Assembly: GCA_040751795.1 (NCBI GenBank)
Contig: JBFMHR010000004.1
Location: 96,001-160,000 of the forward strand
Direction of reading: 5' to 3'
DNA length: 64,000 bases
DNA from: Thermoplasmatota archaeon
Lineage (GTDB): Archaea; Thermoplasmatota; Thermoplasmata; UBA10834
The position numbers and the translations under genes were made by a program. Shown piece after piece: positions 10,510-58,793 of the stretch (position 1 is its first letter; each line of letters opens with the position of its first letter). A model generated the notes under the pieces. The model had not been told where the DNA came from, searched no databases, and was given only the letters and a program-made list of their open reading frames with translations.

Positions 10510-10512
10510 TCT

Positions 10513-43259: not shown

Positions 43260-43279
43260 GTTCCAGTCGCAGCGGGAGG

Positions 43280-43352: not shown

Positions 43353-43519
43353 GTGGGTGCGGCCTGCTGAGTAATCAGGCAGCCCACATATAGCTTTTCA
43401 CGGGGCTGCGTTGCCAGCGGGCCGCCTAGCCAGATGGTTACCGCCGGTCCCCGCAGGGCATAACCTTTAAATGGTGGCGCTGTATCCGCAGACATCGCGC
43501 TTGAAGCGGTGATGAGCCA

Positions 43520-44377
43520 ATGACCGAGAAGGAAGGTGCCAAGAAGCACCACGCCAAGGACGAGGAGAAGAAGGAGGCCGGGGCCAAGGTCGAGGCCGGC
43601 GACATAGTGATGGTGGAGTACGAGGCCTGGGTGGAGGACACCAAGGAGCTCTTCGACACCACGAGCGAGTCCGTCGCCAAGGACAACGGCATATTCAACG
43701 AGAAGATGGTCTACGGGCCGCAGCCGCTGATCGTGGGCAAGGGGAGGCTCTTCCCTGGCCTGGACGAGCACATGGCGAAGGCCGAGGTCGGGAAGGACTA
43801 CGAGGTCCTCATACCCCCGGAGAAGGGCGCCGGCGCCAGGGACCCGAAGCTGGTCGAGCTGCACCCGGTGAGGGAGTTCCTGAGGCAGGAGATCGAGCCC
43901 AGGGTCGGGCTCGAGGTCACGGTCAAGAACAGGCCGGGCTACATCACGGCCGTCACGGCGGGCCGCGTCAGGGTCGACTTCAACAACAAGCTCGCCGGCC
44001 GCACGCTGAGGTACAAGTACAAGGTCGTGGAGAAGCCGACGAAGCAGAAGGAGGTCGCGGAGCTCATACTCAAGATGGCCTACGGCACATCGGAGGGCTT
44101 CGACGTCGAGCACCACGGCAAGGAGTACAAGGTCAAGCTCCCCGACTCGTGCAAGTACGACCAGAGGTGGATCCTCGCCAAGTACGGCGTGGTCAGGGAC
44201 CTCAGGGAGGTCCTCGGGGCGGAGACCGTCTCCTTCATCGAGGAGTACGCCAAGCCCGAGAAGAAGGAGGAGCCCAAGGAGGAGCCGAAGGCGGAGAAGC
44301 CCGCCGAGGCCGCCCCCGAGGGGAAGGCCGAGGAGAAGGCCCCCGAGGAGCTGTCGGAAGAGGACAGGAAGGAGTGA
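43520..44377 (+). CDS. FKBP-type peptidyl-prolyl isomerase (archaeal long type)
   Basis: FDTT, G.G.L.PGLD, IPPEKG.G and VDFN..LAG motifs. Confidence 0.92.
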   Translation: MTEKEGAKKHHAKDEEKKEAGAKVEAGDIVMVEYEAWVEDTKELFDTTSESVAKDNGIFNEKMVYGPQPLIVGKGRLFPGLDEHMAKAEVGKDYEVLIPPEKGAGARDPKLVELHPVREFLRQEIEPRVGLEVTVKNRPGYITAVTAGRVRVDFNNKLAGRTLRYKYKVVEKPTKQKEVAELILKMAYGTSEGFDVEHHGKEYKVKLPDSCKYDQRWILAKYGVVRDLREVLGAETVSFIEEYAKPEKKEEPKEEPKAEKPAEAAPEGKAEEKAPEELSEEDRKE

Positions 44378-44436
44378 GCCCACTCCGGCACATATATATC
44401 CGCAGGCGCCCAGTGACGGGCGGCCTGCCCACACGC

Positions 44437-44511
44437 GGGCGCGTGGCCTAGTCAGGATATGGCACTTGCCTCCTAAGCAAGCGGTCAAGGGTTCGAATCC
44501 CTTCGCGCCCG
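44437..44511 (+). tRNA. tRNA-Arg(CCT), integration target
   Basis: Acceptor stem GGGCGCG/CGCGCCC, anticodon arm CTTGC-CTCCTAA-GCAAG, T arm AAGGG-TTCGAAT-CCCTT. Confidence 0.95.
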
Positions 44512-44514
44512 CTC

Positions 44515-45519
44515 TCACGCATAACCAGTATAATCGGCTCTCGGTTCAATCAGGGGGGAATTGAGCCTCGGAGCTGGTGCCGGCTTCTCGAAGGCTCGGA
44601 CGATTTCGAGCCTCGCGGAGTCGGCGTCTTTTCGGCAATAGTATCTCTCGGTGGTAAGGGTCGAGGAATGCCCAAGAGCGAGTGAGACACTCTCAAGCGA
44701 GACGCCCCGGTTCAGCAGGTTCTGTCCATAGGTCCTGCGGAGAGTCCTCAGCTCGAAGCGCACGCCTGACCGCTCTTCGACTTTCCTCTTCACCCTTCTC
44801 AAGTGGTTTGAGCTGTAGAACCCCGTAGGGTTCTCCAGCGGACAAACAAGCGGCTTTGCCTCAAGCAGCCCTCGCTCTGCAAGCATCTGTTCCCTTGCCT
44901 TGAGGTACCTTGCCACAGCGGACCTGAGAGGTTGGGGGATTGCCACGATTCGGTGGTCTCCGTATCTCGATTCTCCCTTGGGGTGCCGCACCTTCAGAGT
45001 CCACTGGACCGTATCCAGGTCCGAGAACTCCGCCTTCCTAAGCTCGCCAGGCCTGAGGCCCGTGTATGCATGGGTGGCTATCAGGAACCGTGCAATCTCC
45101 CCGGTCCAGCCACCTAGATTCGCTGCTGCCTTGAGAGCACTCTCAAGCTCTTCGACTGCAAGGCTCGGGCCTCTTGTTGAGACCCTCTTGGGGAAAAGGT
45201 GAGGCTTGCATGATTTCATCCTGTCCAGAACACCGTTCCCTGAGAACCTAAGCAGGGCCTGCAGGTTCTCGACCTCCTTGGATTGTGTTCCAAGAGACCA
45301 TTGACGTCTCCTGATGTCCAGCAGGATAGCCGAAACCTCTCGTTCTCCCCAGTTGCATGGATTGCGTTCCAGCAGAGGGTCCCCTCGGCAGAGCTTCTCA
45401 TATCGGCTAGCGAATGCTCTAAGCTTGCGTCCTCGCTCTGTAAGAGTCGCCTCAGCCAGGTACTGCTTGTTTGCGTCCATGTACTTCTCTATGGCCGTTC
45501 TCAGAGGGTATCGTCCCAT
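44515..45519 (-). CDS. Tyrosine integrase/recombinase
   Basis: TGLRPGEL (R), HPKG (K), RTLRR (RxxR in place of HxxR), LGHS (H) and ERYY (Y); stop lies 3 bp from the tRNA end. Confidence 0.93.
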   Translation of the reverse strand: MGRYPLRTAIEKYMDANKQYLAEATLTERGRKLRAFASRYEKLCRGDPLLERNPCNWGEREVSAILLDIRRRQWSLGTQSKEVENLQALLRFSGNGVLDRMKSCKPHLFPKRVSTRGPSLAVEELESALKAAANLGGWTGEIARFLIATHAYTGLRPGELRKAEFSDLDTVQWTLKVRHPKGESRYGDHRIVAIPQPLRSAVARYLKAREQMLAERGLLEAKPLVCPLENPTGFYSSNHLRRVKRKVEERSGVRFELRTLRRTYGQNLLNRGVSLESVSLALGHSSTLTTERYYCRKDADSARLEIVRAFEKPAPAPRLNSPLIEPRADYTGYA

Positions 45520-45651
45520 TGACCGACACCCCCTCTTGCGTCCACGCCTCTTTTTATCCACCGAGAGAGTACCATTGCGACATTGCCGAGTCGCATTGTC
45601 TCCCTCGGAAGGGACATTGACGGGACGGGACGTTAAGTTATCGGACATTTC

Positions 45652-46305
45652 CTAAGCCTTCGGTTCACCGACCAATTCACTAGGGGCCTCGACCCCCTCC
45701 TTATTCAATCGCGCCCTAGCCGTTACATACGAAACGCCAAACCTCTTCGCAATCTTCCTGTATCCAAGCCCCTGGGACCTTAGTTCACGCGCTAGAGCCA
45801 TATCGATGGCCTTCCTGGGCCTCCCCAATGACCTCCCCTCTGACTTCACCCTCTCAAGGCCTGCTTTGGTCCTTTCAACGATAAGGGCCCTCTCGAACTC
45901 CGCTATCTCGCCTAGAATGCCAACCAGAAGCCTACCCGTCGGAGTATTGGTCGAGAATGGCTGGTCCGAGCACTCGAACTTGATGCCCCGTTCCTCGAGC
46001 TCCCCGATAATCTGCTTGAGATTCAGGGATGAACGGGCAATCCTGTCGATCTTGGTGGTGAGGACCAGCCCGAACCTTCGAGCCCTAGCGTCATTCATCA
46101 TTCGTTTCAGGTTAGGACGATTAGGGTCTGCGCCCGAAGCCACGTCTTGATAGGTACTGTAAACGTCCCACCCCCTGGCGTGGGCGTACTCCCTTAACCG
46201 GATGAGCTGGTTCTCATTGGTCTGCCCGTCGGCCGTCGACACCCTTGCATAGAGAGCGACTTTCAGTCTCCTGTCATCCTTTGCCGTATTTCCTGATTCA
46301 TCCAT
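45652..46305 (-). CDS. Small serine recombinase (resolvase/invertase) with C-terminal HTH
   Basis: YARVST, DRIARS, AEFER..I.ERT..G, GRP and HTH. Confidence 0.93.
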   Translation of the reverse strand: MDESGNTAKDDRRLKVALYARVSTADGQTNENQLIRLREYAHARGWDVYSTYQDVASGADPNRPNLKRMMNDARARRFGLVLTTKIDRIARSSLNLKQIIGELEERGIKFECSDQPFSTNTPTGRLLVGILGEIAEFERALIVERTKAGLERVKSEGRSLGRPRKAIDMALARELRSQGLGYRKIAKRFGVSYVTARARLNKEGVEAPSELVGEPKA

Positions 46306-47239
46306 ACGAAATGTCTCCCCCGTCCTTCCTGTGCTCATAGGGATATTCCCCGTCAATTTGCCCTCCGAGAAGGCGTAGCAGGAGCTCCATCGTCCTGGCC
46401 TCGCTCTCTGCCAGCTTCTCGATAATCTCCTTGACATCGTCAACCGCTTTGCTGAGCTTATCAAGAACATCGAGAATCCTGACGTTGAAGTCGGCCTGAT
46501 TCACTAGACCTTTGATTCCATCTCTGATATTGTGGTCAGATTTTTGACACCTTATGTCCATCTCAGCAGGATAATGGGACGAACCGAACTGTGTTGGTCT
46601 ACCCCCGATTGTGAGCCTTTCCCCTTTGATGTCGACCGGCAAACAGAAGTCTGTCCTGGCCCTCCCCTCGCTCATCAACTTCAGTAGATACTCTAGGAAC
46701 TCCTTCCCGAAATGACGTTCAACCGCTGCCCTCCAGTATGGTCGATAGAAGAACTGCCCTCGCCTAGACCTGCCGTTGACAGTTAGCGTGAAGGACTGGG
46801 TCCTCAGGGTATACTGGTCATTCCCCCTCTCGCCCTTCGCTATCAGAGTATCCATCCATTCGGCGGTGAGGTCGACTAGCAGGTAGGTCCTGTGCTCGTC
46901 GTAATCAGTGAATTCATTACCGGGAAGGGAGGGGGTTACCATTATCCAGGGTTTGTCAGAACTCCCCTCGATGTAACTGATTGCCCATTCCCTGTTCTTG
47001 ATTCTATATAGTCTGTGCCCCTTCGAGTTTAGTCCCGGACTCGTCGCGATGCCCAATTTGACAAATCGTCTCAGGGCCTTCTCGATTGATGCCTTCTTAG
47101 TACCCCTCTTCTTGAACTCTGGACATTTGATGATGTCGTCGGCTGTGAACCCCCGAGATGATGAATACTGATTGCACAACGTTAGTAAGCGTTGGAGAAC
47201 GATAACCTGAGCCGACCGAAGCCTTCTCAGATGACACAC
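46298..47239 (-). CDS. Hypothetical protein with N-terminal wHTH-like region (candidate replication/regulatory protein)
   Basis: FTADDII...SIEKALRRFVKLG......RLYRI pattern; lies between the RHH and resolvase genes. Confidence 0.6.
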   Translation of the reverse strand: MCHLRRLRSAQVIVLQRLLTLCNQYSSSRGFTADDIIKCPEFKKRGTKKASIEKALRRFVKLGIATSPGLNSKGHRLYRIKNREWAISYIEGSSDKPWIMVTPSLPGNEFTDYDEHRTYLLVDLTAEWMDTLIAKGERGNDQYTLRTQSFTLTVNGRSRRGQFFYRPYWRAAVERHFGKEFLEYLLKLMSEGRARTDFCLPVDIKGERLTIGGRPTQFGSSHYPAEMDIRCQKSDHNIRDGIKGLVNQADFNVRILDVLDKLSKAVDDVKEIIEKLAESEARTMELLLRLLGGQIDGEYPYEHRKDGGDISYG

Positions 47240-47358
47240 CCTCTAGGGCGAGAGACATAGGGACTGTCCGTCGGTCCTGCACACTGGCTCAGTCAATGAG
47301 TGGGGGATGAGGGTAGGGAGTAACGTCCTCGCTCTCACCTTCATGACATTTGGGTCGA

Positions 47359-47565
47359 TCATTGACCGCCCCCCGACGCTTGGTCCTTGCGGTATAGCTC
47401 GTAGACCGCTTCTCGCACAACACTCGCTTTTGATGACCCTAGCGCCCTGCTCCTCTTGGTTACCCAGTCGGCCAGGTTCGGTGGCAACGTGAAGATAAAT
47501 CGTTCGCCGGGTCCATCATCAACCGCGCTCACATTGGGGTTTGCTCTTGTTTTTCTCTTGAACAT
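47359..47565 (-). CDS. Ribbon-helix-helix (CopG-like) protein
   Basis: RFIFTLP..LADWV...S...GSSKASVVREAV; GGAGAAG RBS. Confidence 0.75.
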   Translation of the reverse strand: MFKRKTRANPNVSAVDDGPGERFIFTLPPNLADWVTKRSRALGSSKASVVREAVYELYRKDQASGGGQ

Positions 47566-48055
47566 TGTTGTTCTTCTCCTTTGTTGTTGTTCTTCTCCGG
47601 GGTTCCATGTCCATCCTCCTCAGGACCCCGACCCTCGGGGTCCCGTCTTCCTGCTTCTCTCCGCTTGTTAGATGCGTGCTTTTGATATATAAGTGTTCCA
47701 GTATAATATAGGCCATATACTAAACGCCATCATCATATATCCGAAGTGCCATCACCCCCAACAGCCATAACTGACGAGCTTGAGTTGTACGCTGTTCTGG
47801 TGGGCTACCTGGTCTCGAAAACGGTCATTGAATCCGGCGTCGGGCGAGGGCGATAATTGACCTAATTCGACTATCTGGACGTTTCCCGGACCGTCGCGGA
47901 GATTGTCTCAAGTCGCATTTCTCGCGGGTCTAAATATATAGTATTAGTATGGGTAACGGTCCTTTTCTGAAAATGGATGCGAAGCGCGGCTCGAGAGGCA
48001 AAGAGACTAATCGGAGAATGGCCATCCGACTCTAGAGTGGGGTGGTTCAACGGCG

Positions 48056-48367
48056 GTGGAAGAAGACTTCGCGCTCTGTTGCACTGGGCTCATAATTATC
48101 GTGATTATCGCCGTGGTCTTGTGGGTCCTTGCGAAGGGCGCGGGAATCCTAGGGTCTCTCGGGCAGTGGAGGACAGGGTCCGCCCTTAAGCACATGTCTC
48201 GAGACGGTGTCACGATCCGGCAAGAGCCGCAATATCAACAGCCTCAGCAGGTGCACGGCTACCCGCCGCCCCAGGTGCAGGGTGCTGCCCGATTCTGCCC
48301 TTTCTGCGGGGCGCCAAGAATCGGTGGCGCAGCCTTCTGCCAGGGGTGCGGGAAGAGGATGCCATGA
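48056..48367 (+). CDS. Membrane protein with C-terminal double zinc ribbon
   Basis: TM helix, Q/P linker and FCPFCG......AFCQGCG. Confidence 0.75.
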   Translation: MEEDFALCCTGLIIIVIIAVVLWVLAKGAGILGSLGQWRTGSALKHMSRDGVTIRQEPQYQQPQQVHGYPPPQVQGAARFCPFCGAPRIGGAAFCQGCGKRMP

Positions 48368-48721
48368 CAATCGATACGGGGGGCTCAAGCTGGGCCTCCT
48401 GATAGGCTTCTCGCTCCTTGCTGGATGGGCGATAGCCTTGACCATATTCGGATGACCGTGCTCGAGCCAATGGCTTCGTCGTCGCGAAGGGTTCCCCTTC
48501 TTAGTATGTAATAGAATAACGGGACTGAACACCGAACACCGGACTTGATTGCGTGCATTGTGCGCTGTGCGCCTACATCAGAATAGTAGGAATAGTAGTA
48601 CTATGAGATTGACCAGGCGCATATCGCGCTTGAGAATTCTCGGTTTTGGGTGGCACCAAGACATATGTTATTTAATAGCGAAGTCTACCATCTATTCACC
48701 GCTGGTCTGGAGGAGACGCGA

Positions 48722-49906
48722 TTGAACGTGAATACCCACGACCCATTGAAGAAGACCCTCGGCTTGCTTGGCCCGTCATTCACTTGTGCCGTAATCACGG
48801 GACTATTCGTCTACGTAATGGTGACGCCAGACCTAATGGCGCTGATTATCTCAATCCTCGCAGGGTGGGTGTTCACGATGGTGATAATACTGTCCTGGTT
48901 TTTGGGTATCAGGGCAAAGACTAGCGGCCTGAAAAATGTCGCATACGGCCTGTTTGGCATACCAATGATAAAGCTCCCTGAGGACAGGATGGGGGAATCT
49001 GACAGAATCTATCGTGCGGGCCTGGAGACCCTGGAGGCGGATCGGGAGATTAAGGAAATCGATTTGCATCATCTACAATCCAGACTCGAAATACTCAACG
49101 CGGTAATCAAAGCCGGGCCGTATGCAATCATGTCATCGTTTGTTGCCGCAGGTTGGGCAGTCCTATCGGGTGAATCGACCGCACTGAATTCACTGCTTCT
49201 GCTCGCGGCATTCATTGTCATGCTGGTTGTGGGATGCAATCGGAAAGCCAAAGAGGCAGAAACAACACTTGGCACCCTGAAGCTCAACAAGAACAAGACA
49301 GAGGAACGATACAGAGTCAGAGAGGAGGAAGTCAAGGCAGACGCCCAGAAGGCGAAGGACGCGGCATCGGACGTCTTTGACCATTACTTCAGAGTCACGT
49401 TCAGCAGAGAGTTCTTCGACCAGCAAAGGAAGACGGCGCACAGCATGCTACCAGAGTCGACAAGTCTTAGGTCTACCAACTTGGCGTTTCGTCACAAAGA
49501 GTGCTTTAGACTAGCTACTGAGCTGAAGAAAAAGACAATCGAGTTCATTGACTGCGCCGAGGCCTGGAGGAGCCTGGTCGGCAGTATGGTCAAGTCAATC
49601 CAACCCGGGGCTCCCCACTTGGACCCCGGAGACCAGGAACGTAGGGTAGACGAGTTTTCTAGGTCTCTCATCTTCTGCATTTCCGAAAACATCGTCAAGC
49701 CGACCCAGATAGGACCCGTGTTGGACCGGAAGAAAATCGACGGTTCGTTCATCAAAGGTATTACTACCGTTCTTGAGCCACCTATCAGGTCGCTTCTTGA
49801 AGACCCTGGCCTGAAAGCGAAAGCGAGAGAGTTAGAAGGCTTAATGACCACAGGGGCAGAGCTAAAACGGAGCCTCTTGAGAGAGGTGTCAGTGCTTTAC
49901 GGATGA
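48722..49906 (+). CDS. Hypothetical multi-TM protein with coiled-coil C-terminus
   Basis: Long ORF in a low-GC region; about 4 hydrophobic helices; GGAGGAG before TTG 48722. Confidence 0.65.
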   Translation: MNVNTHDPLKKTLGLLGPSFTCAVITGLFVYVMVTPDLMALIISILAGWVFTMVIILSWFLGIRAKTSGLKNVAYGLFGIPMIKLPEDRMGESDRIYRAGLETLEADREIKEIDLHHLQSRLEILNAVIKAGPYAIMSSFVAAGWAVLSGESTALNSLLLLAAFIVMLVVGCNRKAKEAETTLGTLKLNKNKTEERYRVREEEVKADAQKAKDAASDVFDHYFRVTFSREFFDQQRKTAHSMLPESTSLRSTNLAFRHKECFRLATELKKKTIEFIDCAEAWRSLVGSMVKSIQPGAPHLDPGDQERRVDEFSRSLIFCISENIVKPTQIGPVLDRKKIDGSFIKGITTVLEPPIRSLLEDPGLKAKARELEGLMTTGAELKRSLLREVSVLYG

Positions 49907-50076
49907 GCGTTGTGGTGGCAACTCAGGATCGCAAGTATTCCCGAGAAGCGCCTATAAGCCGCCGACAACGCTCAGATTGAGAAAAGTAAAGGGTTTAGGG
50001 GGTACTTTCGGGCCCCTCCAAGAACGCGATAAAACAGCAATTATGTACCTTTCAAGGTCGAGCCAGTCATTTTAGC

Positions 50077-50096
50077 GGGTTCAAATCCGGTTGAGC
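50077..50096 (+). repeat. Degenerate tRNA-Arg T-arm fragment
   Basis: GGGTTCAAATCCGGTTGAGC is 19/20 identical to 52063-52082. Confidence 0.65.
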
Positions 50097-50176
50097 CTAC
50101 TGACAGAGTGAAGACCATAGGAGAGAAGAGAAGCCCTTAAGCCACCGACAGCGATTCGGATGCGGAGGGAATCGGC

Positions 50177-50551
50177 GTGAATTGTACTCAATGTGGGTCG
50201 GAGAATCCGTCGAACGCGAGATTCTGCATTGCCTGCGGTTCGTCCTTGGCGAGAACGGCGTTTGGGATGCAGGCAGTTGCGGGACTGAGTGAAACACAAC
50301 GAATCGAAATCGTATCTGACAACGTAACCAGCAAGACCGAGAAACTTGCCTGTAGGGTACTGGGAGGCACCGCATGGATAGTCGTTTCTGCTGGGACATT
50401 CATAATCGCCATTGCATGGCTCAGTCTCATGGACATGAACTACTATGACGACGAACAGTTGATGCTCAAGATGATTGGCTACGGAGTGGTTGCATACGGA
50501 ATCTCAGCCATCCTCTTTGGGTTCAGAGCCTTCATCAGGACTCCGAGATGA
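50177..50551 (+). CDS. Zinc-ribbon + 2TM protein
   Basis: CTQCG..N...ARFCIACG followed by two TM helices. Confidence 0.8.
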   Translation: MNCTQCGSENPSNARFCIACGSSLARTAFGMQAVAGLSETQRIEIVSDNVTSKTEKLACRVLGGTAWIVVSAGTFIIAIAWLSLMDMNYYDDEQLMLKMIGYGVVAYGISAILFGFRAFIRTPR

Positions 50552-50735
50552 CATACAGGCGCATCGAAAGCGTCTAGGACGCGTTTCCTTCGATGGCCGT
50601 AACGCAACCCGTCGTCAGAGGTATCTTACCCCTGCCGAGACGTGTTAGAGGCGAATCCTCGGCTATTCCTGAATAGACCTGCATCTGAAGGCGCGAAAAG
50701 ACCATATGACGGCATGAGTATTCGCGGGGGAGGAC

Positions 50736-51287
50736 ATGGCGATCACCTGCTCCAACTGCGGCGCGAAAGGTCTGCTCGAGGGCGACCGATTCTGTAAATG
50801 GTGCGGCAACGTACTCCACATACTAGGGCCGGACCCGGAGGAAACAGCCACTCGGTGGCACATAGAGACCAATAGAACGACACACACGCGATTGAACTTC
50901 TGGTTGATAACCGAGGGCCTCTTGCTCACTGCATATGCAGCCGCGTCAATCGAACCGTCAGGCGATGCTACCGCTTATGTTCGCATCGTGATGTCTGCAA
51001 CGGGAGTGTTCTTCACGGTGGCTTGGTACCTTCTTTATGTTCGCTCGTGGCGGTACACTACCTGGTATTTCGAAAGGGCAAGGGCCATGAGTTGGTGGAG
51101 ATATGGGGGTTGGAAACATGGCACACCTGGTAATCCGCGCGACATACCTCCTTGGTCCGTGTATCCTCCCGAGGAACAGTGGTCTGTCTGGTCAGGAGGC
51201 GGTCTTGGCGCGGGCATAGGCGCAGGTTTGTTTCTAATTGCCTTCTTGTCAATATGGATTACTTTGATGGCGGTGTCGTTCTCCTGA
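50736..51287 (+). CDS. Zinc-ribbon + 3TM protein
   Basis: CSNCG......RFCKWCG, then RLNFWLITEGLL and TM helices; GGAGG RBS. Confidence 0.8.
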   Translation: MAITCSNCGAKGLLEGDRFCKWCGNVLHILGPDPEETATRWHIETNRTTHTRLNFWLITEGLLLTAYAAASIEPSGDATAYVRIVMSATGVFFTVAWYLLYVRSWRYTTWYFERARAMSWWRYGGWKHGTPGNPRDIPPWSVYPPEEQWSVWSGGGLGAGIGAGLFLIAFLSIWITLMAVSFS

Positions 51288-51376
51288 GTCAGAGAGAGCG
51301 GAGGGAAGAGCGGAGAGATTCAACCTCGTCGCCAATCGTCCTGAACCTTGGCTATTCGCGTGCAGAAAAGGGAAAG

Positions 51377-51483
51377 GGGTTTGGGTCCGTGCTCAATTTC
51401 CGTTGATTGACGACTAAGCCCGACATACTGGCTTGCTAGCAGAGCGAATCCCTTCGCGCCCGCTCTCAACCATATCCAGCATG
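51377..51483 (+). repeat. att junction 1 (right arm + 24-bp tRNA core + mirrored left arm)
   Basis: TGATTGA 51404, ATACTGG 51425, core 51445-51468 identical to 44494-44517, then CCAGCATG. Confidence 0.9.
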
Positions 51484-51530
51484 ATCAGTTGTTTCTCCAC
51501 CCCATGACTGGTTCGGTGCTCGGAGAAGGA
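51466..51530 (-). pseudogene. Relic 3' end of a second integrase
   Basis: Encodes ...TDHAGYG* versus ...ADYTGYA* in the intact integrase, with the stop codon at the same position relative to the core. Confidence 0.65.
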
Positions 51531-52033
51531 GAAGTAAGGGTGGAGGGCCGCAGAAAGGACAATATAGGCTCACGGATGTCTTCGGTTCATATGAGTGCGA
51601 CAGACAGGGAGGGCCCCACCACGAGCAATGAGCATCATTCGCGCCTCCTTCTATCCAAGGGATGATGGGTTGCGATACTTGCTCTTGCATCCGCACCATT
51701 GGCATTCATCTACATAGTGACCGAGGGGAGCGTAGGGCGATGGGTGGCATGGCTAGCCATTCCGCCTCTGCTTGTCGCCCTCTTATACTTCTATTATGTC
51801 TCCTACAGGGCTGTGTTCGGGGGCTCCAGACCTCGCTAATGGAACATGATTGGTTGGAGACTCAAGAGAGTGGATGTCTGGTCCCCTGATAACTCCTCCA
51901 TTTCCTGTCTTAGCTTGACCCGAGCCCTGTAAATCCTCATGTAGCAGGTCCAGCATAGCTTCTTTGTCTTCACAGGAACTCTCCCACACTGAATGCACGC
52001 ATGTCCAGGGCGGTACTTCCTGGGGTGCTTCAC

Positions 52034-52074
52034 TGGCACTTGCCTCCTGGGCAAGTGGTCAAGGGTTCGAATCC
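52034..52074 (+). pseudogene. tRNA-Arg fragment (anticodon arm to T loop)
   Basis: TGGCACTTGCCTCCTGGGCAAGTGGTCAAGGGTTCGAATCC matches 44460-44500 with 3 mismatches. Confidence 0.85.
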
Positions 52075-52129
52075 GGTTGAGCACACCCCACTGAGACAAG
52101 CCCAAAATAGGGAACGGGAAAAGGGTCCG

Positions 52130-52609
52130 TTATGGAGAGAGCGACTCGTAGACTTTGTCGACCGCCTTCTCTATCTCGTCAAAGCAGACGTCATCGTTGC
52201 AGGCATTCAGTTTGCCCTTCAGGTTCTTGATCTTTATGCTCAAATCTGTCTTCGTCGATGAATAGGACAACAGTGAGTCCTTGGCGTAGCCGATGATGCC
52301 ACCGGTTCCCGAGACGCCGGCAACCACAGTGGTGATTGCGCCCAAGGCATCAGACCATGTGATGGCACCTATTGCGGTCAGGGACGTGATGACCGAAGAA
52401 GCAATGACAATGGCCATCTGGGTCCTTATGTGCCGGAGTTTGAGCTCCACAGCTTCCTCTAAGCCACTAATTCTGATTCCGATGTCCACCTTCCGGTTTA
52501 CTATGCTCCTTCCTATACTCTTCCTTATGTTCTTGGCCGAGCGTGCACTTGACGATACTGCATGCGCCCAAATCCAGTAGGCTATCTCTTTCCTAATCAA
52601 TCCATTCAC
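52130..52609 (-). CDS. Hypothetical 2TM protein (SLATT-like topology)
   Basis: Two adjacent hydrophobic helices followed by an amphipathic helix; start uncertain. Confidence 0.6.
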   Translation of the reverse strand: MNGLIRKEIAYWIWAHAVSSSARSAKNIRKSIGRSIVNRKVDIGIRISGLEEAVELKLRHIRTQMAIVIASSVITSLTAIGAITWSDALGAITTVVAGVSGTGGIIGYAKDSLLSYSSTKTDLSIKIKNLKGKLNACNDDVCFDEIEKAVDKVYESLSP

Positions 52610-52696
52610 CCTCTCTTCTCCTCGAACCACCGAGGCAGTACTGTGAATCAACCTGTGCAATATTAGTCGATTTCCTCAAGAATGGGTGAAGGAAGA

Positions 52697-52785
52697 GGGT
52701 TTGAGGACGAGCGAATTTTCCCTCTGATTGAACTGGCATCGCGACTTACTGGCTCTGTGAAGGTGCGAATCCCCTTCGGTTCAAT
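52697..52785 (+). repeat. att junction 2 (right arm + partial core)
   Basis: GGGTTT 52697, TGATTGA 52725, TTACTGG 52746, CGAATCCCCTTCG 52766, then GTTCAAT as in the left arm. Confidence 0.8.
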
Positions 52786-52842
52786 TCATAAGAGACACCC
52801 TTAAGCCGACGAGAGCGATTCGGGCAGGGAGGAGACGGTGAG

Positions 52843-53085
52843 ATGGTCATGCACTGTGCTAATTGTGGGTTCCCACTTGAGCCGAATGCGAGGTTCTGTC
52901 CAAGGTGTAGCTCGGTCTCTCTGGCAATCAGCCAAAGGGAACCTAGTCTAGAAAGAATCGCACTCGCAATTGAGCGGAATGCGACTGCGACCGAGAACAT
53001 ATACAACCTTATGCTCGCCGCGGCTGCCGTGACCGTTATCGTCGGCATACTTCTCGGAATTGTAGTAACTGGAGGTTGGCCCTAA
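52843..53085 (+). CDS. Zinc-ribbon + 1TM protein
   Basis: CANCG......RFCPRC and a C-terminal TM helix; GGAGG RBS. Confidence 0.75.
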   Translation: MVMHCANCGFPLEPNARFCPRCSSVSLAISQREPSLERIALAIERNATATENIYNLMLAAAAVTVIVGILLGIVVTGGWP

Positions 53086-53174
53086 ACGTAGGATGAGCGT
53101 CCAGGTCCGGGCTCGACTTCCTGCTGACGCAAGCCCTTAAGCCCTCTAAGGCGATCCAGACACGAGGAGATGGC

Positions 53175-54023
53175 ATGGGTGGAACCCTTTCCCGTGTGTG
53201 TCTAGTGTTAGTAGTGTGCGCAGCGACACTTCTGATGTCCCTGGGTGCGTGTTGTGCGGCTCCAACCTCGACGACCGACAGTCGAACAGTGACTTTCTCA
53301 ATAGATCGACCAGATCTATGGCTTGACGCGAGGCTTCCTGTTGTCGCTACGTGGACTGACAGCTTCACGGCCTCAAAGGATGATGTCCTCGCACTCTCGT
53401 ACACGCTAGAATCTCAGGCAGCGAGCGTCGAGCTGACTCTTCCTCTCAGCGACTACCTTTGGTGGCTAGGCGTCGATGATGTTACTATCGATGTTCCTCT
53501 GGGAAACACTCCGTTGGTCGCGGAGTCAATCTCTCTAACCTCACTTGCAGGAATACCCTCTTGGGCAGCCTCACTGGACCTCAGGTTGAGTGGGTCCGTG
53601 CGTATGCACGACCTCTGCTGTGTCTCGGGTTCGGCGCTCATTCAAACGCCCGCTTCGGCGGTGACGTGGAGTACTTGGTCGACAGAGACGGCTCAGGTTA
53701 TTGCTCCGGAAAGCCCTGGTGCGTCTGTTCGCGCAACCCTCGCCTATGCGCTGGGGATAGGACTCACCCTGTCAGTCCTTGGAGCTGATGTCTACGATAT
53801 CATTCCTTCCTCTACGGTCTTGAGTGTGGTTGGCGCTCCGAGCCTTGAGACAGAGATTGATGTGCCGACACCAGCATCCGCAATGTCAATAGTCATGATT
53901 GGAGTTGCCATAGCTGCTGTCGTCGCGGTTGCTGCAATTCTGCTCATGGTCTTGCGACGCAAGAGAGGCAGTTCTGGGGCAGCCGAGACTGAATCGCCAC
54001 CTGAGGAACCGGAGATGCCATAA
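53175..54023 (+). CDS. Secreted, C-terminally membrane-anchored surface protein
   Basis: Signal peptide, S/T-rich beta domain, TM helix and RRKR tail. Confidence 0.75.
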   Translation: MGGTLSRVCLVLVVCAATLLMSLGACCAAPTSTTDSRTVTFSIDRPDLWLDARLPVVATWTDSFTASKDDVLALSYTLESQAASVELTLPLSDYLWWLGVDDVTIDVPLGNTPLVAESISLTSLAGIPSWAASLDLRLSGSVRMHDLCCVSGSALIQTPASAVTWSTWSTETAQVIAPESPGASVRATLAYALGIGLTLSVLGADVYDIIPSSTVLSVVGAPSLETEIDVPTPASAMSIVMIGVAIAAVVAVAAILLMVLRRKRGSSGAAETESPPEEPEMP

Positions 54024-54379
54024 GACGCGTTCTTCTCGGTGGCCGTAACGCGAAGTGCATTCGGAGGCATCGAGCCCTTGCCGAGAGGAGACCCCCCTCG
54101 AATCCCAGGGATAGATCGGACGACATGGCCCTTTCTTCTCTACTGCGCCCTCGCATGAAATCTTTGAGGGGCATCCTTTGGCGATTGCGAGGAGAATCTC
54201 CTGAATCTAAGGTCTTGTCATGCTGGGCTCCATAAGGCCTTGTAGCGCAAAGGAAGGCCAGATAGGCAAAGGGTTCGAAGGAAGATTGGACGGCTAGGTC
54301 AATTCAGCGGTCATGACTTAGAATCTTCGGAGCAAAGATTTATCGCCTCTAATGCATTAAGGATTTTCGGAGGAAGACT

Positions 54380-54976
54380 GTGGGTGTTAAGAATTGTCCT
54401 TACTGCGGAACTGCGAACCTTCTCAATGCAGTGCAATGCGTGAGATGTGGAACTATGCTCGCGCTACCGACTCCTCCAAGACCTCCTTCTCATGCTGGTG
54501 CGATAGCAGCTGGTGTTGTTGCCTTCATAGTGGTAATAGTGGTTGTCCTTGCCTATACTAGCATCCTTTCAGTTCCTTCTGGAGACGGTGGTGTCGTCGA
54601 CCCAGTAGGCACAGTAACGACAAACATCCGTACTGATGAGAAGAATTGGTTTGACTTTGAATCAGGAAGCCAGAACGTCCCAAACTGTGATTTCTATGTA
54701 GATAGTACGCTTAATTTCTATACTTCCGTTGCTATAGGAGATTCGATGTTTATCTCCGATGTCGGCCCCGTGAGCGGTCTCGGTCAGGTTACGATTATTC
54801 CAACTTCTGGCTGGACTGAAGCATGCTCAATTATCTTGGGACACGGATATGTCGTTCAGACTACGGATAATCACTATTACGGGATGTATGCCGTTGACTG
54901 GATGACGGACGCAGTTTTTGGCGGAGTGATTGGCCTTCAATTCAAATGGTATTTCATGGGAGATGTTGCAGTTTAG
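54380..54976 (+). CDS. Zinc-ribbon + TM + extracellular beta domain protein
   Basis: CPYCG......QCVRCG, a TM helix, then a WFDF...P.SGW...GHGYVV.T.D..Y domain. Confidence 0.78.
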   Translation: MGVKNCPYCGTANLLNAVQCVRCGTMLALPTPPRPPSHAGAIAAGVVAFIVVIVVVLAYTSILSVPSGDGGVVDPVGTVTTNIRTDEKNWFDFESGSQNVPNCDFYVDSTLNFYTSVAIGDSMFISDVGPVSGLGQVTIIPTSGWTEACSIILGHGYVVQTTDNHYYGMYAVDWMTDAVFGGVIGLQFKWYFMGDVAV

Positions 54977-55007
54977 ACGACACCGGTTAGAGAAGAAGCC
55001 TTGAAAG

Positions 55008-55091
55008 GGGTTTAGCTCCGGCCTCAATCCGGTCTGATTGAATGGTTCTCCCGGCATACTGGCTATTCAAAGGTTCGAATCCCTTCGCGCC
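55008..55091 (+). repeat. att junction 3 (outermost attR)
   Basis: GGGTTT 55008, TGATTGA 55035, ATACTGG 55056, and 55067-55091 matching tRNA 44485-44509 at 24/25. Confidence 0.88.
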
Positions 55092-55250
55092 AGCCATTTC
55101 CATCCTTGAATGGCGCGAGGGCGTTTGAGATCCCTTCTGCCTCGGGCCACAGGCCCGAGGGTCGGGCGTTCATCCTGCTGGTTGGCTCACCGGGAGCAGT
55201 GGGGACTGCCGTGATAAGGTATATCCCCCCTGACTGGAGTGCGCTTCTGC

Positions 55251-55709
55251 ATGGCGACGCTGAGATGCCCTAGGTGCGGCAACATCGATAGCAGTTTCCA
55301 GTCACGGTTCTGCAACCTCTGCGGGGCGGCTCTTGTGGATGCCCAGGCGAAGGAGGAGATGATTGACGCGAAGCATTGGGAACTGCCGTTCATCCTCTCG
55401 ATTCACAGGGGGGAGTTGATCGTGAGGCCCGGCTCGGAGGACAGCTTCATCGAGTCCAGACGCAAGATCCTCGGCGCGAGAGCGGTGGTTGTGCATTCGA
55501 GAGCGACCTGGATCCGCAACAACGTCGTCATGGCCCTCTACTTCTTGATCGTCGCCGTCCTGCTCACTGCGGTCATGGCTTCCGCCGGGCTGCCGTGGAT
55601 CGGGGTATCAATCGGACTGTTGATGTTTGCGGTGTACTCACCCTACCTAGTGATGTTCATCTGGTCGCTGCAGCCGATAAACGACAGGAACAGATACTAC
55701 GGGCCTTGA
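55251..55709 (+). CDS. Zinc-ribbon + 2TM protein
   Basis: CPRCG......RFCNLCG and two C-terminal TM helices. Confidence 0.75.
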   Translation: MATLRCPRCGNIDSSFQSRFCNLCGAALVDAQAKEEMIDAKHWELPFILSIHRGELIVRPGSEDSFIESRRKILGARAVVVHSRATWIRNNVVMALYFLIVAVLLTAVMASAGLPWIGVSIGLLMFAVYSPYLVMFIWSLQPINDRNRYYGP

Positions 55710-55984
55710 GTCACGGCGGACATGGCAACCTGATTGGGCGCCCGGAGAGCCGTGAGGGGGAACGGAGTCCGGCTCCCGGCCCGGAAACCCCCCTCATCGA
55801 GTCACATCCCAGGTCTGCCGGCCTCTCAAGGCCTCGGCCCCCTTCGCCTTCGCTCCCCCCTCCGCCAGTGGTTGCTGACTAATATAACGACAAGTTTTTA
55901 TATAATCCCTACTCAAATATACCCTGGACGGGGGAGAGGCACCGGGACGCCCCGGGCCGACCCCCTTTGGATGAGGTGTAAGAG

Positions 55985-56449
55985 ATGGGAACACCACAGC
56001 AACCCAGTTCTAGGATGTGCGTCCAGTGCGGGAAGCCTATCGCCCAGGACGCGAACGTGTGCCCGTACTGCGGCAAGGACTACCGTGTCCAGGCAGCGCC
56101 GGCGGCCAAGAAGAAGACCGTGATGCCCCTGGTGGGCGGCATCCTGATCGTGGTCGGCGGCGTCCTCGCCCTGCTGGCAGGCATAGGCCTGGTGGCCAGC
56201 GTCGGGGCCTTCGACTCCCTGATGATCGTCGACGTCGAGGGCGTGGACATGCTCGAGGACCTCCTGACGGCCTGCGGCATACTGTTCATAATATTCGGCC
56301 TGATAGGACTCCTCGGAGGAGTGTTCGCCATAATGAGGAAGCACTTCGGCCTGGCGATACTCGGCGGCATATTCGCCCTCTTCGGGTGGTTCCTCCCGGC
56401 GCTGATCGGGCTCATCCTGGTCGGGATGTCGAAGGAAGAGTTCGAGTGA
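55985..56449 (+). CDS. Zinc-ribbon + multi-TM protein
   Basis: CVQCG......VCPYCG followed by 3-4 TM helices; host-like codon usage. Confidence 0.8.
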   Translation: MGTPQQPSSRMCVQCGKPIAQDANVCPYCGKDYRVQAAPAAKKKTVMPLVGGILIVVGGVLALLAGIGLVASVGAFDSLMIVDVEGVDMLEDLLTACGILFIIFGLIGLLGGVFAIMRKHFGLAILGGIFALFGWFLPALIGLILVGMSKEEFE

Positions 56450-56515
56450 CCGGGTTCCCCGGCCGACGGACCTGAAACCCCTTCCAAGCCTTTGGTTTCC
56501 ACTCATATGCGCAGG

Positions 56516-57046
56516 TCACCCCCTGCGCGCCCTCCACCGCCTCTCGAACTCCGCCTCCCACCACGAGGCGTACCTCCTGACCCCCCTGCGCCGCATCCGG
56601 AGCGCCTCCACGGCGACCTCGTGGGCCAGTGCGGCCGCCTCCTCAGACCACGAGCCCCTCAGACCCCTGGGCACGACCAGGTAGGTCGGCGACTCGTCGA
56701 TGTACCTCGGGGGGACCCTCGCGAGGGCGTGGACGTCCGCGGCCCTCTCGCCGCCGGGGATGCCCTTCGAGTTGAACTGCGCGAGGTGCATCAGCTCGTG
56801 GGCGACGGTCCAGTGGGTGGGGTACCTCCAGCCGCCCCGTCCCCTCCTCACCTCGAGCATGAGCTTGGCGAACCCGTCGTCCGTCTGGAAGACCGCGCCG
56901 TCGTAAGCCCTGGTGATGCCGACGGCCAGCTCTCTCCTCATCTCGGGGAAGTAGCGGCCGAGGGCCCGGAGCCTCCTCTCCACCTCCCCCCGCACCTCGG
57001 GGGGCAGCTTCTTGGCCGTCCTGGTCCAGGAGATCGTAAGCGGCAT
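56516..57046 (-). CDS. Hypothetical protein with HExxH (zincin-like)
   Basis: VAHELMH followed by E.AAD. Confidence 0.6.
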   Translation of the reverse strand: MPLTISWTRTAKKLPPEVRGEVERRLRALGRYFPEMRRELAVGITRAYDGAVFQTDDGFAKLMLEVRRGRGGWRYPTHWTVAHELMHLAQFNSKGIPGGERAADVHALARVPPRYIDESPTYLVVPRGLRGSWSEEAAALAHEVAVEALRMRRRGVRRYASWWEAEFERRWRARRG

Positions 57047-57089
57047 ATCGCTGCTCTATGGCGTCCGTCCCTCTTATCGGATGCGCCCC

Positions 57090-57836
57090 TCACTCCTCGA
57101 CGAGGACCTTCCCCTCTATGGAGACGACATACCTCCTGACGGGGATGTCCTTCCCTGACCTCCTCAGGGCCTCCATGGTGAGCCTCATGAGCCCCTGGCA
57201 GCAGGGGACCTCCATCATCACGACCGTGAGGCTCCTCGGGGAGGCGTCCCTGAAGAGCGCTGTGAGCTTGTCCAGGTAGGCCTGCTGCTCGTCCAGCTTC
57301 GGGCACCCTATGATGACGGGCCTCCCCCTGAGGAACCTCCCGTGGAAGTCCCTGTAGGCGAAGGGGACGCAGTCCGCAGCGAGGAGCACGTCCGCCCCCT
57401 TGAAGAACGGCATCGAGGGATGCACGAGCCTCCACTGCACCGGCCAGTTGGTCAGCTCCGGCGGCAGCGTCCCCGCGTCCGCCTGGGGCTGCGCCGGGGC
57501 CCTGGGCATCCCCTGCCCCGCCCTGAGTATCATGGGGTTGGACGAAGGGCAGCCGCACGGCTCCGTGGCCGCGTGCTCCGCGACGTGCTCCTCCCCGCCG
57601 TGGAGGTGCCTCTTGACGGCCTCCTCGTCGAACTCGGGTGCGTCCCTCTCGACGATCCTGAGGGCGCCCTGCGGGCACTCCCCTATGCACGCCCCGAGCC
57701 CGTCGCAGAACACGTCGCTCACGACCTTGGCCTTGCCGTCGACGATCCTGAGGGCCCCCTCGGCGCACGCAAGGGCGCACTGGCCACAGCCGTCGCACTT
57801 CTCCTCGTCTATCTCGATGATCTTCCTGAGGACCAT
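57090..57836 (-). CDS. 4Fe-4S ferredoxin-domain protein
   Basis: CDGCGQC...C, CDGLGAC...CP, GCP, L.NWPVQ, ADC, GCPKLD and MEVPCC motifs. Confidence 0.9.
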   Translation of the reverse strand: MVLRKIIEIDEEKCDGCGQCALACAEGALRIVDGKAKVVSDVFCDGLGACIGECPQGALRIVERDAPEFDEEAVKRHLHGGEEHVAEHAATEPCGCPSSNPMILRAGQGMPRAPAQPQADAGTLPPELTNWPVQWRLVHPSMPFFKGADVLLAADCVPFAYRDFHGRFLRGRPVIIGCPKLDEQQAYLDKLTALFRDASPRSLTVVMMEVPCCQGLMRLTMEALRRSGKDIPVRRYVVSIEGKVLVEE

Positions 57837-57911
57837 GCCTTCACCCGCCTGGTCACCATGACGGCCCCGGGGGTATCAAAAGGCATCGCCGGACACCGCC
57901 GGTGCCCCAGG

Positions 57912-58793
57912 TCACGGCCCGTTGTGCCTGAGCCAGTTGTCCCTGGCCCTTGAGGTGTTGAGCCTGTCGCCTATGACGCTCGCCACGAACGCCGTCGGCG
58001 GCAGGAGGAACATGAACGTCCCCCCGAGGGAGACGAGCTTGGTGGACCTCTTCATGGCGAAGAGCGCCCGGGAGTACTCCGTGTCCTCGGGGACCGCCCC
58101 CCGGAGCATGGACCGGGCTATGACCCTCTGTATGTCCAGGACGAGGAGGGTGGTCATCCAGACCACGTTCCGTATGGTGGTGTACTCGCCGCCGTAGCCG
58201 GTCCTGCGGGCCACGATGGCCTTCCTGAGCTCCTCCGCGGTCGTGCCGTCGAAGGTGGTGACGCCGTCCCCGACCATCATGGGGGCGTGGGCGTCGCTCC
58301 CGCCGGTGAGGGCCTTCCCCGAGCCGGAGCACTTGCCCAGGGCGAGGTCGTTGGAGTAGCGGTCCCTGTGGAACGCATTGAAGACCTCGACCCCGTCCAG
58401 GTCGAGGGAGAGCACCCTGTCGCCGAGGGCCGCGCAGTGGGCGCTGAAGGGGTGCGGGGCAACGGCGACGCCCCCCATGCCGTGTATGATGTCTATGGTC
58501 TCCGCGGCGGTGAGCCCGGCCGGGACCCCCTCCGTCAGGAAGAGGCCGAGGACCTCCCCCTCGGAGGTGAGGACCTCCTCGCCCACGACCACCTCCACCT
58601 CCTTGGCGTGCTTCCTCGCCTCGAGCCCGCCCCGTATGCCGTTGTGGTCGGTGACGCAGAGCACGTCGAGCCCCCTCGCCTCGGCCGCCCTGACGAGGTC
58701 CATGGGCTCGGTGACCGAGTCGGGGATCTTCAGGAAGAGCACCCGCGAGAGCCCTGAGTACTTGGTGTGGGTGTGGAGGTCGGCCGTGCCCAT
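57912..58793 (-). CDS. PHP domain protein
   Basis: DLHTHT, TDHN, PHP and GGSDAH motifs. Confidence 0.9.
   Translation of the reverse strand: MGTADLHTHTKYSGLSRVLFLKIPDSVTEPMDLVRAAEARGLDVLCVTDHNGIRGGLEARKHAKEVEVVVGEEVLTSEGEVLGLFLTEGVPAGLTAAETIDIIHGMGGVAVAPHPFSAHCAALGDRVLSLDLDGVEVFNAFHRDRYSNDLALGKCSGSGKALTGGSDAHAPMMVGDGVTTFDGTTAEELRKAIVARRTGYGGEYTTIRNVVWMTTLLVLDIQRVIARSMLRGAVPEDTEYSRALFAMKRSTKLVSLGGTFMFLLPPTAFVASVIGDRLNTSRARDNWLRHNGP

Follow-up and report, generated by a model that had tools for sequence, protein, structure and literature searches.

We describe a low-GC island within a 64,000-nucleotide stretch of DNA (the window) from a Thermoplasmatota archaeon (GTDB lineage Archaea; Thermoplasmata; UBA10834; assembly GCA_040751795.1, contig JBFMHR010000004.1, positions 96,001 to 160,000 of the forward strand). 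The island and its border contain seven open reading frames (ORFs) for small membrane proteins, each with a predicted zinc ribbon. Three integrative elements are stacked here at a tRNA-Arg(CCT) gene. Six of the seven ORFs lie inside the insertion, and the seventh is a host gene beside it. We think it probable that a family of small, plasmid-like integrative elements from one Thermoplasmata family carries these six as accessory cargo, in which a generic ribbon is fused to unrelated payloads. The ORFs at window positions 48056, 50177, 50736, 52843, 54380, 55251, and 55985 are called ORF1 to ORF7, and the organism's own genome (2.05 Mb in 53 contigs, ~65% GC) is labeled G000. Ribbons and their metal binding are predictions from sequence motif and profile throughout.

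Three Elements Stacked at tRNA-Arg(CCT)

The GC content of the window drops from 0.61-0.70 in the flanks to 0.49-0.60 between ~45000 and 56000. The integration target, a tRNA-Arg(CCT) gene, is abutted by an intact tyrosine integrase gene that accounts for one of the eight PF00589 matches in the genome (Table 1). In the same-genus genome G003 the site is empty: the tRNA is followed within ~130 nt by a homolog of ORF7 (83% identity), and the window flanks are contiguous at 91% and 82% DNA identity. Contigs from sediment run X1 also show an empty site, joining position 44516 or 44518 to 55880, with word depths of 50-126 in the flanks and 0-6 in the island. The raw-read runs X3 and X4 contributed only 2 and 3 reads. 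The G003 empty site and the X1 joints therefore define an insertion of 11.4 kb, from 44513 to ~55880. It qualifies as tRNA-integrated: the integrase adjoins a tRNA gene, direct repeats of the 3' end of that gene mark the far border, and relatives show the site empty.

The insertion comprises an intact element A (44513-51463) and two decayed remnants, B (51464-55094) and C (55095 to ~55880), neither of which contains any trace of an integrase. A first-pass annotation of this DNA had proposed an integration hotspot with two of the seven ORFs outside the outermost right attachment site (attR). The attachment (att) site copies, the empty site, and the contig joints bear out the hotspot as a tandem element array. 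The proposed boundary has to be moved, as a third, degenerate att (~55841-55867) and the empty-site joints put ORF6 inside the island, because it lies in remnant C, and leave ORF7 alone outside. Host-like codon usage, previously ascribed to one ORF, applies to two when judged by GC content at third codon positions (GC3): ORF6 (0.82) and ORF7 (0.85), with ORF1-5 at 0.42-0.70. The value for ORF6 fits either amelioration or a GC-rich donor.

Self-BLAST of the island returned only the right-end sequence D4 with its att site and the leader D1, both described below, and BLAST of the island against the rest of its own genome gave no match at E ≤ 1e-5. An Rfam scan of positions 43000-58000 at E ≤ 1 returned two tRNAs, two chance-level rows, and nothing else. 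An integrase search of wider genome contigs found five loci, mostly C-terminal remnants.

Single Ribbons on Small Membrane Proteins

All seven ORFs are present in the ORF list, where ORF6 is entered from the GTG at 55239, with an ATG at 55251. One CxxC-x10-CxxC motif is found in each of ORF1, 2, 4, 5, and 7, and one CxxC-x11-CxxC motif in each of ORF3 and ORF6. Hydrophobic helices number one in ORF1, 4, and 5, two in ORF2 and ORF6, two or three in ORF3, and three or four in ORF7. Pfam matches to PF13240 (Zn_Ribbon_1) or PF13248 (Zn_ribbon_3) were obtained for 7/7 ORFs, with scores above the curated cut-offs for ORF2 (33.2 vs 25 bits), ORF4 (26.3 vs 25), and ORF7 (29.8 vs 27). In these ORFs the DZR model (PF12773; 45 positions, two ribbons, eight Cys) is matched at positions 1-23 or 24-45 only. 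Because these matches span half the model, the ORFs carry single four-Cys ribbons. The earlier description of seven clustered ribbon proteins with one to four transmembrane (TM) helices thus holds as to the ORFs, their one CxxC pair motif each, and their helices, and fails in calling the ribbons double. True DZR proteins are present elsewhere in the genome, e.g., a 66-aa protein at C1:442650.

A GGAGG-type Shine-Dalgarno sequence lies 5-10 nt upstream of the starts of ORF2-5, including the GTG of ORF5, where GGAGG stands 7 nt upstream of 54380. Crude lysine/arginine counts beside the helices place all seven ribbons on the cytoplasmic side. With the ribbons masked, no pair among the seven matches in BLASTP at E ≤ 1. 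This agrees with the proposal that the remaining sequences are unrelated, except that ORF2 and ORF6 are possibly distant kin through a protein of genome G014.

Ribbon Enrichment at This Island

In a six-frame census by regular expression and hydropathy, 54 of 11,585 ORFs of at least 50 aa combine the ribbon motif with at least one TM segment. Seven of the 54 fall within 8.4 kb and the other 47 elsewhere. In 20,000 random placements of 54 points, seven per 8.4-kb window was never reached (the maximum was six, in two runs), which confirms the clustering in and beside the island. The ribbon is frequent beyond it: PF13240 has 112 genome-wide matches at E ≤ 1, six of them in the seven ORFs, and the ORF2 ribbon alone matches in 45/49 genomes of the order. 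Among 1,666 high-GC3 ORFs, which form a crude host set, 514 have a TM segment and 38 of these (7.4%) a ribbon; the ribbon is not specific to the island. The corresponding count for island membrane ORFs is 6/9 (odds ratio 25, Fisher p 1.8e-5).

The genome has ~110 kb of further low-GC DNA, with integrases near two of the stretches, and none of it contains a ribbon-TM ORF. The architecture is thus common in the genome, and the local density is genuine and tied to this island, not to islands generally. The ribbon-TM enrichment is specific to one element family. Equal density across the genome and conserved synteny among relatives had been named as what would speak against a special cluster; for ORF1-6 the density is uneven and the positions are non-syntenic in relatives.

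Elsewhere the genome has a host family of 1,000-1,330-aa proteins with several N-terminal ribbons and TM segments, whose members are 37-48% identical to one another (Table 1).

ORF7 Is a Host Gene

Of 16 relatives examined at this locus, 12 have a homolog of ORF7 in the matching position, with the same two genes next downstream; it is missing in G013, G015, G016, and G018. In 11 of these 12, tRNA-Arg is also on the examined stretch, at the other side of the homolog. Between the tRNA and the ORF7 homolog, the 12 relatives have ~130 nt to 2.8 kb of DNA, in which no ribbon ORF of 50 aa or more occurs. ORF7 has six paralogs in its own genome (E 6.6e-16 to 1.9e-4, ribbon masked). It is a host gene that flanks the hotspot by chance and is unrelated to the island cargo, and not, as had been supposed, an older, ameliorated member. 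Ribbon-TM genes adjoining an island need not belong to it. In G015 and G018 (genus g2), the place of ORF7 downstream of tRNA-Arg is taken by a different 208-aa ribbon-1TM ORF (L017 2129-2755 and L018 2179-2805, both minus strand).

Payloads and Homologs of ORF1-6

Homologs of ORF1, ORF2, and ORF6 sit in DNA of 0.49-0.55 GC. At 69% identity, the homolog of ORF1 lies in a low-GC region of G006:C8. Full-length homologs of ORF2 are found in G033 (E 3.1e-18), G014, G006, G009, G019, G038, and G004, and ORF6 has one clear homolog, in G036 (E 2.8e-11). A 135-aa ribbon-2TM protein of G014 is matched by ORF2 (E 5.3e-7) and, weakly, by ORF6 (E 2.8e-4); because both match this one protein, they may form one ribbon-hairpin family.

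The payload of ORF3 (residues ~30-180) has 14 database relatives at E < 1e-6 and 29-41% identity, 13 of which lack a ribbon and one of which has half a ribbon. The Pfam family 8xMP (PF24838) is matched by 14 of 15 aligned ORF3-family sequences (best E 2.4e-12); the score of ORF3, 24.2 bits, is under the cut-off of 30. Its nearest Atlas clusters are also 8xMP (score 0.81, taken as a lead only). An AlphaFold2 model (pLDDT 83.9) predicts three long helices after the ribbon. No solved relative of ORF3 emerged: Foldseek of the Protein Data Bank (PDB) with this model returned nothing at E ≤ 0.001, and searching PDB sequences by profile gave nothing below E 0.14. A full-text literature search for 8xMP or octameric membrane protein returned no relevant paper.

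For the payload of ORF5 (residues ~70-198) we found six related proteins at 34-41% identity. None of the six carries a ribbon, and all have short hydrophobic leaders ending in Cys, of lipoprotein type as judged by eye. Pfam gives a weak match to DUF5036 (PF16439, E 0.005). As a lead, structural alignment of the Atlas model of ORF5 gives template-modeling scores of 0.69-0.76 by query to DUF5036 and HmuY-like domains from proteins of Bacteroidota and Ignavibacteriota; the AlphaFold2 model (pLDDT 51.1) is too poor for a structure search.

Nearly all payload relatives of ORF3 and ORF5 lack a ribbon, so the ribbon behaves like an end module that can be exchanged, in agreement with the earlier suggestion of a ribbon with varied membrane or extracytoplasmic payloads. 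A recent exchange of the ribbon-coding 5' end was considered and dropped, as DNA likeness past the start codon, judged by eye, does not exceed that expected from the conserved MKCxxCG residues. An NCBIfam scan gave sub-threshold ribbon-type rows and a weak SLATT_1 match for o52130, a remnant B ORF, and nothing more.

A Conserved Leader Precedes Part of the Cargo

ORF2 and ORF4, and more weakly the ribbonless gene o53175, are preceded by a shared leader, D1, with CCCTTAAGCC as its core. It consists of a conserved, almost invariant core of ~34 nt, GAGAGAAGCCCTTAAGCCAYCGAGAGCGATTCGG, then 5-10 variable bases, then a GGGGAATGG-type Shine-Dalgarno sequence. With up to three mismatches allowed, the 30-nt core has 34 matches in 12 of 46 family genomes; a reversed control has 0. 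By genus, these are 6/11 relatives in g1 plus the own genome and 5/12 in g4, with 0/19 in g2 and 0/3 in g3. As far as searched, the element family is limited to two genera of one Thermoplasmata family. The own genome has seven copies at E < 1 by nhmmer, three of them in this island.

Among the loci examined there are 32 distinct D1 copies, and behind 30 of them an ORF of 40 aa or more begins within 3-69 nt. These ORFs have a ribbon at the start in 12/30 and a TM segment in 19/30. Other genes behind D1 code for secreted proteins with Ig domains, for a methyltransferase, for numerous small membrane proteins without a family, and for a 65-66-aa soluble double-ribbon protein. In metagenome contigs, the exact D1 pattern occurs at seven loci (five distinct), and three of the five are followed by ribbon-TM genes and one (L081) by a TIR-like start, judged by eye.

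We infer from sequence that D1 could be a promoter and leader with a box for a specific protein. Alignment folding gave no conserved RNA pairing (alifold energy 0.0). A scan with bacterial-type promoter and terminator models, which are ill-suited to archaea, gave counts not above those of shuffles. Two other roles were dropped. Against a resolvase recombination site, all copies have one orientation and stand 3-31 nt before a start codon in 29/30 cases (69 nt in one). Against an integron-like cassette array, in which promoterless cassettes would each end in a folded attC-type site, D1 lies upstream of genes and is followed by a Shine-Dalgarno sequence and start codon, with no conserved pairing.

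Several D1 loci outside the window deserve mention. At G000:C1:44463-44800, a gene with a TIR domain (TIR_2 E 5e-15 for its first 91 aa, the part tested) stands behind a D1-like copy (nhmmer E 2.7e-6) inside another low-GC island, which has an integrase at C1:41155. At G000:C1:442602-442850, a D1 copy in host-GC DNA precedes the 65-66-aa soluble protein, a true double ribbon (DZR E ~1e-12) conserved in G056 and G008 (L039, L040), three genomes in all. Speculatively, this protein might be a D1-linked regulator. Locus L025 (G006:C5:158000-177000) contains, at 9125-13671, a related element in which three or four ribbon-2TM ORFs come directly after a 51% identical integrase, with D1 copies in front of two. 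This is a compact, integrase-plus-ribbon-cargo version of the island.

Cargo Turnover at a Modular Right End

The right ends of A and B share D3 (66 nt, 71%) and D4 (~90 nt of end sequence plus att, 72%). The slot between D3 and D4 is filled by ORF3 in A and by ORF5 in B. A 5.3-kb metagenome contig from run X2, which runs from att to att, shares positions 50574-51468 (D3, ORF3, D4, and att) with 10 differences in 895 nt. Its integrase region (window 44489-45658) has 79 differences in 1170 nt, and its 3.2-kb middle is unalignable. By its sequence the contig looks like a shorter variant of element A. Cargo thus passes from one element variant to another, and the breakpoint lies where D3 starts.

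Table 1. Features of the island, its borders, and a related host gene family, in window coordinates unless a contig is named (ribbons, helices, and domains as predicted)
Feature	Position	Strand	Details
tRNA-Arg(CCT), integration target	44437..44512	+	ARAGORN; Rfam tRNA 66 bits; last 19 nt (44494-44512) = attL core
Tyrosine integrase, element A	44515..45648	-	Intact, abuts tRNA; PF00589 E 5.5e-14
Element A backbone	45652..47565	-	Serine recombinase/resolvase (PF00239 E 3e-40); 313-aa ORF without known family; weakly ribbon-helix-helix/CopG-like 68-aa ORF
ORF1	48056..48367	+	103 aa; N-terminal TM helix, Q/P-rich linker, C-terminal ribbon (C81-C98)
418-aa membrane protein, element A cargo	48650..49906	+	No ribbon or family; ORF list, profile searches
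Conserved non-coding element	49971..50100	+	Ends in tRNA-like 3' fragment (50077-50096); repeats; multiple copies in relatives
D1 leader before ORF2	50111..50176	+	30-mer core 50130-50159, then GGAGG-type Shine-Dalgarno
ORF2	50177..50551	+	124 aa; N-terminal ribbon, linker, 2-TM hairpin
D3	50575..50640	+	66 nt, directly after ORF2 stop; repeated after o53175 stop; X2 variant breakpoint
ORF3	50736..51287	+	183 aa; N-terminal ribbon, 8xMP-family (PF24838) helical membrane domain
D4 right-end sequence and attR1	51372..51463	+	attR1 51445-51463, 19/19 identical to attL; repeat comparison
Remnant B minus-strand ORFs	51836..52660	-	89-aa ribbon-only ORF and 176-aa 2-TM ORF; ORF list, profile searches
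D1 leader before ORF4	52775..52842	+	Repeat comparison, nhmmer
ORF4	52843..53085	+	80 aa; N-terminal ribbon, linker, one TM helix
Weaker D1-like leader and o53175	53126..54023	+	Leader 53126-53174; 282-aa secreted or C-terminally anchored ribbonless protein; ORF list, repeats
D3, second copy	54021..54086	+	Repeat comparison
ORF5	54380..54976	+	198 aa; N-terminal ribbon, one TM helix, extracytoplasmic DUF5036/HmuY-like beta domain
D4 copy and attR2	55003..55094	+	attR2 55076-55094, 18/19; repeat comparison
ORF6	55239..55709	+	152-156 aa; N-terminal ribbon, cytoplasmic stretch of ~60 aa, 2-TM hairpin; the only ORF in remnant C
Degenerate attR3 and right border of whole insertion	55841..55880	+	attR3 ~55841-55867; G003 empty site, contig joints
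ORF7	55985..56449	+	154 aa; ribbon, 3-4 TM helices; host gene
Host multi-ribbon family members	G000 C1:110286-113768, C1:458526-461864, C45:30469-34467, C45:170596-173604

Other Features of the Island

Two tRNA-like 3' fragments (50077-50096 and 52034-52082) terminate in ...TTCRAATCCGGTTGAGC, which is the acceptor end of no tRNA in this genome; both could be remnants of att sites from other hosts. The second shares 93% identity with tRNA-Arg(CCT) from the anticodon to the T arm, and around the first a ~120-nt element (49971-50100) recurs in several copies in relatives. The 89-aa minus-strand ORF of remnant B (51836-52105) has a CxxC-x11-CxxC ribbon and no TM helix, overlaps the tRNA-Arg-like fragment at 52034-52082, and draws weak PHROG rows (DNA-binding or HNH, E 0.006). 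Beside it, o52130 (52130-52660, minus strand; 176 aa, two TM helices) has a sub-threshold match to SLATT_1 (E 7e-4, 19.5 bits vs a cut-off of 41).

Discussion

Our preferred explanation treats ORF1-6 as the accessory cargo of a small integrative element family. Three copies would have inserted successively into tRNA-Arg(CCT), bringing with them cargo that would consist almost wholly of small membrane or surface proteins, several of them probably transcribed singly from D1. The ribbon would be a generic cytoplasmic end module of the membrane proteome of this lineage, joined to a membrane domain of the 8xMP type, a surface domain resembling DUF5036/HmuY, a 2-TM hairpin, or just a TM helix, as the payload predictions suggest. 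It could serve as a fast-folding cytoplasmic cap that fixes an N-in topology, as a dock for a cytoplasmic partner, or as both. The proteins may alter the host envelope to the benefit of the element, as in lysogenic conversion or exclusion. We found no evidence that ties the seven ORFs into one machine.

Several points weigh against this explanation. The ribbon scores of ORF1 (20.3), ORF3 (23.3), ORF5 (23.3), and ORF6 (18.8) are under the Pfam cut-offs, the TM counts come from crude hydropathy, and the host gene set comes from a GC3 rule. Homologs back five of the six island ORFs and not ORF4, for which no full-length homolog was looked for or seen. The database gene call for ORF5 begins at Met26 and leaves out the ribbon (window 54380-54454); GTG-start ribbon-headed genes may be under-annotated. 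The likeness between the D3 copies, 71% over 66 nt, is weak and was missed by BLAST at E ≤ 1e-3. Some loci in relatives were chosen by DNA likeness to island segments that included D1 and the first ribbon codons, which possibly inflates the ribbon share behind D1. D1 is read as a putative promoter from its position, its conservation, and the Shine-Dalgarno sequence and start codon downstream. Finally, the island ribbons are slightly more alike than host ribbons (0.27 vs 0.17 identity, permutation p 0.037, n = 4), which would suit an adaptor common to them more than a wholly generic module.

Such an adaptor was the core of the first-pass interpretation, in which the ribbons form one dedicated cytoplasmic part that couples interchangeable modules to a common output, as a polymorphic receptor, superinfection-exclusion, or defence repertoire. 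Besides the ribbon likeness, it draws on the location of the genes on a mobile element with visible cargo turnover, the conserved D1 leader per gene, the D1 copies before the TIR-domain gene at C1:44463 and the TIR-like start in L081, and weak membrane-effector-like matches (SLATT_1 for o52130, 8xMP for ORF3). We nevertheless regard it as unlikely, since the same ribbon type heads 38 host membrane ORFs and is present throughout the order, the cassettes share no partner gene, D1 also precedes genes for Ig-domain, methyltransferase, and soluble proteins, and the payload families are found elsewhere without ribbons. No specific pointer to the proposed role emerged: PADLOC-DB 2.0 defence models returned 0 families for 14 island proteins at E ≤ 0.01, and PHROGs returned ribbon-level matches only, none better than E 2.5e-4.

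A bolder proposal, to which we give little credence, is that these elements have a portable head for expression and anchoring, made up of D1, the start codon, and the first zinc knuckle. With this head they would capture foreign membrane or surface domains, e.g., a lipoprotein-type DUF5036/HmuY-like domain, for display, yielding a cassette-like, strain-variable envelope and conflict repertoire under one dedicated regulator that reads the almost invariant 34-nt D1 box.

It is quite improbable that the proteins are membrane-tethered regulators or sensors, with a ribbon that binds DNA or RNA and a TM or outer part that senses a signal. Membrane-tethered transcription factors have been hypothesized for bacterial ribbon-TM-YARHG proteins (PMC3355149), and the lysine/arginine counts do put the ribbons in the cytoplasm. 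A lone 22-aa ribbon, unaccompanied by any other DNA-binding domain, gives this role little footing, however; ORF2, ORF4, and ORF6 have almost no outer sensing part, and zinc ribbons are absent from a survey of transmembrane regulators (PMC10269533, 0 occurrences).

Very improbable, in our judgment, is a role as structural or transfer parts of the element, e.g., a vesicle- or pleolipovirus-like particle envelope or a DNA-transfer device. Nearly all non-backbone genes of the element encode membrane proteins, which would be the sole candidates because no other morphogenesis gene is recognizable. Structural genes are expected to be conserved, however, whereas the cargo varies among A, B, C, and the X2 variant. 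IMG/VR viral contigs gave 0 confirmed of 7 and 0 of 33 candidate stretches for relatives of the integrase and the ORF3 family, and the PHROG level cited above points the same way. Together, the PHROG and IMG/VR searches found none of the marks of a provirus (capsid, packaging, or virion genes, or relatives on viral contigs).

A coincidence of ordinary host-type ribbon-membrane genes or spurious ORFs, unlinked to the elements, could appeal to the 47 ribbon-TM ORFs elsewhere and to ORF7, which is exactly such a host gene, and is largely refuted by the 0/20,000 random placements, the absence of ORF1-6 from the empty site, the homologs of 5/6 ORFs, and a low GC3 in line with the island.

Comparison with Known Systems

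An N-terminal ribbon of the PF12773, PF13240, or PF13248 type, followed by a TM helix and an outer domain, is described in PMC3355149 as a recurrent architecture, exemplified by bacterial ribbon-TM-YARHG proteins. The proteins described here resemble it in having one ~22-aa four-Cys ribbon at the N (or C) terminus, a TM segment, a variable outer part, and a predicted cytoplasmic ribbon. They differ from what it describes (PMC3355149) in that six genes are packed on archaeal mobile elements, several behind one leader, and some almost without an outer domain. A further likeness, in the role described, is to the haloarchaeal C(P)XCG zinc-finger small proteins and CdpC, where four-Cys ribbons are small docking modules (PMC6562870, PMC11241148, bioRxiv 10.64898/2026.07.16.738847). 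The C-terminal zinc ribbon of CdpC is reported to bind FtsZ1, and CdpC to tether FtsZ1 to the membrane (bioRxiv 10.64898/2026.07.16.738847). As described there, CdpC differs in having an amphipathic helix in place of TM helices and two ribbons, and in being a core division gene. It offers a precedent for a ribbon as the cytoplasmic protein-binding end of a membrane-associated protein.

The island as a whole is like the archaeal dark matter islands and tRNA-integrated elements (PMC4158269; PMC2718499, PMC8371274): low-GC, fast-evolving, at a tRNA gene, with an integrase and small membrane or secreted proteins. Ribbon-headed cargo and a shared leader are not described in the cited portion of PMC4158269. 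A non-exhaustive search of full-text literature likewise turned up no account of Thermoplasmata elements that carry ribbon-headed cargo behind a shared leader. What is added here is the anatomy of the elements, the identification of payload families, and the D1 leader. Unlike nearly all their PF24838, PF16439, and PF14064 (HmuY-like) relatives, the ORF3 and ORF5 payloads carry an N-terminal ribbon.

Many of the unexplained genes on archaeal mobile elements code for small membrane proteins, and membrane proteins often end in a zinc ribbon to which no function has been assigned. This locus provides a compact, comparable set, with six ribbon-TM genes, two identifiable payload families, and a conserved leader that recurs in two genera. 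It makes both the contribution of the ribbon (topology, stability, or docking) and the reader of the D1 box testable with few constructs.

Prophage morons, including lysogenic-conversion and superinfection-exclusion genes, are variable, single accessory genes with their own promoter near an att site, and often encode small membrane proteins. The island cargo is like them in comprising accessory single genes near att that encode small membrane proteins and vary between related elements. It is unlike them in its archaeal host, in an element with no virion genes, and in having no recognized homology to known exclusion proteins. If the cargo genes are true exclusion or defence genes, they would be an archaeal counterpart of prophage morons with their own promoter type; otherwise, the locus provides a clean annotation of a tandem element array.

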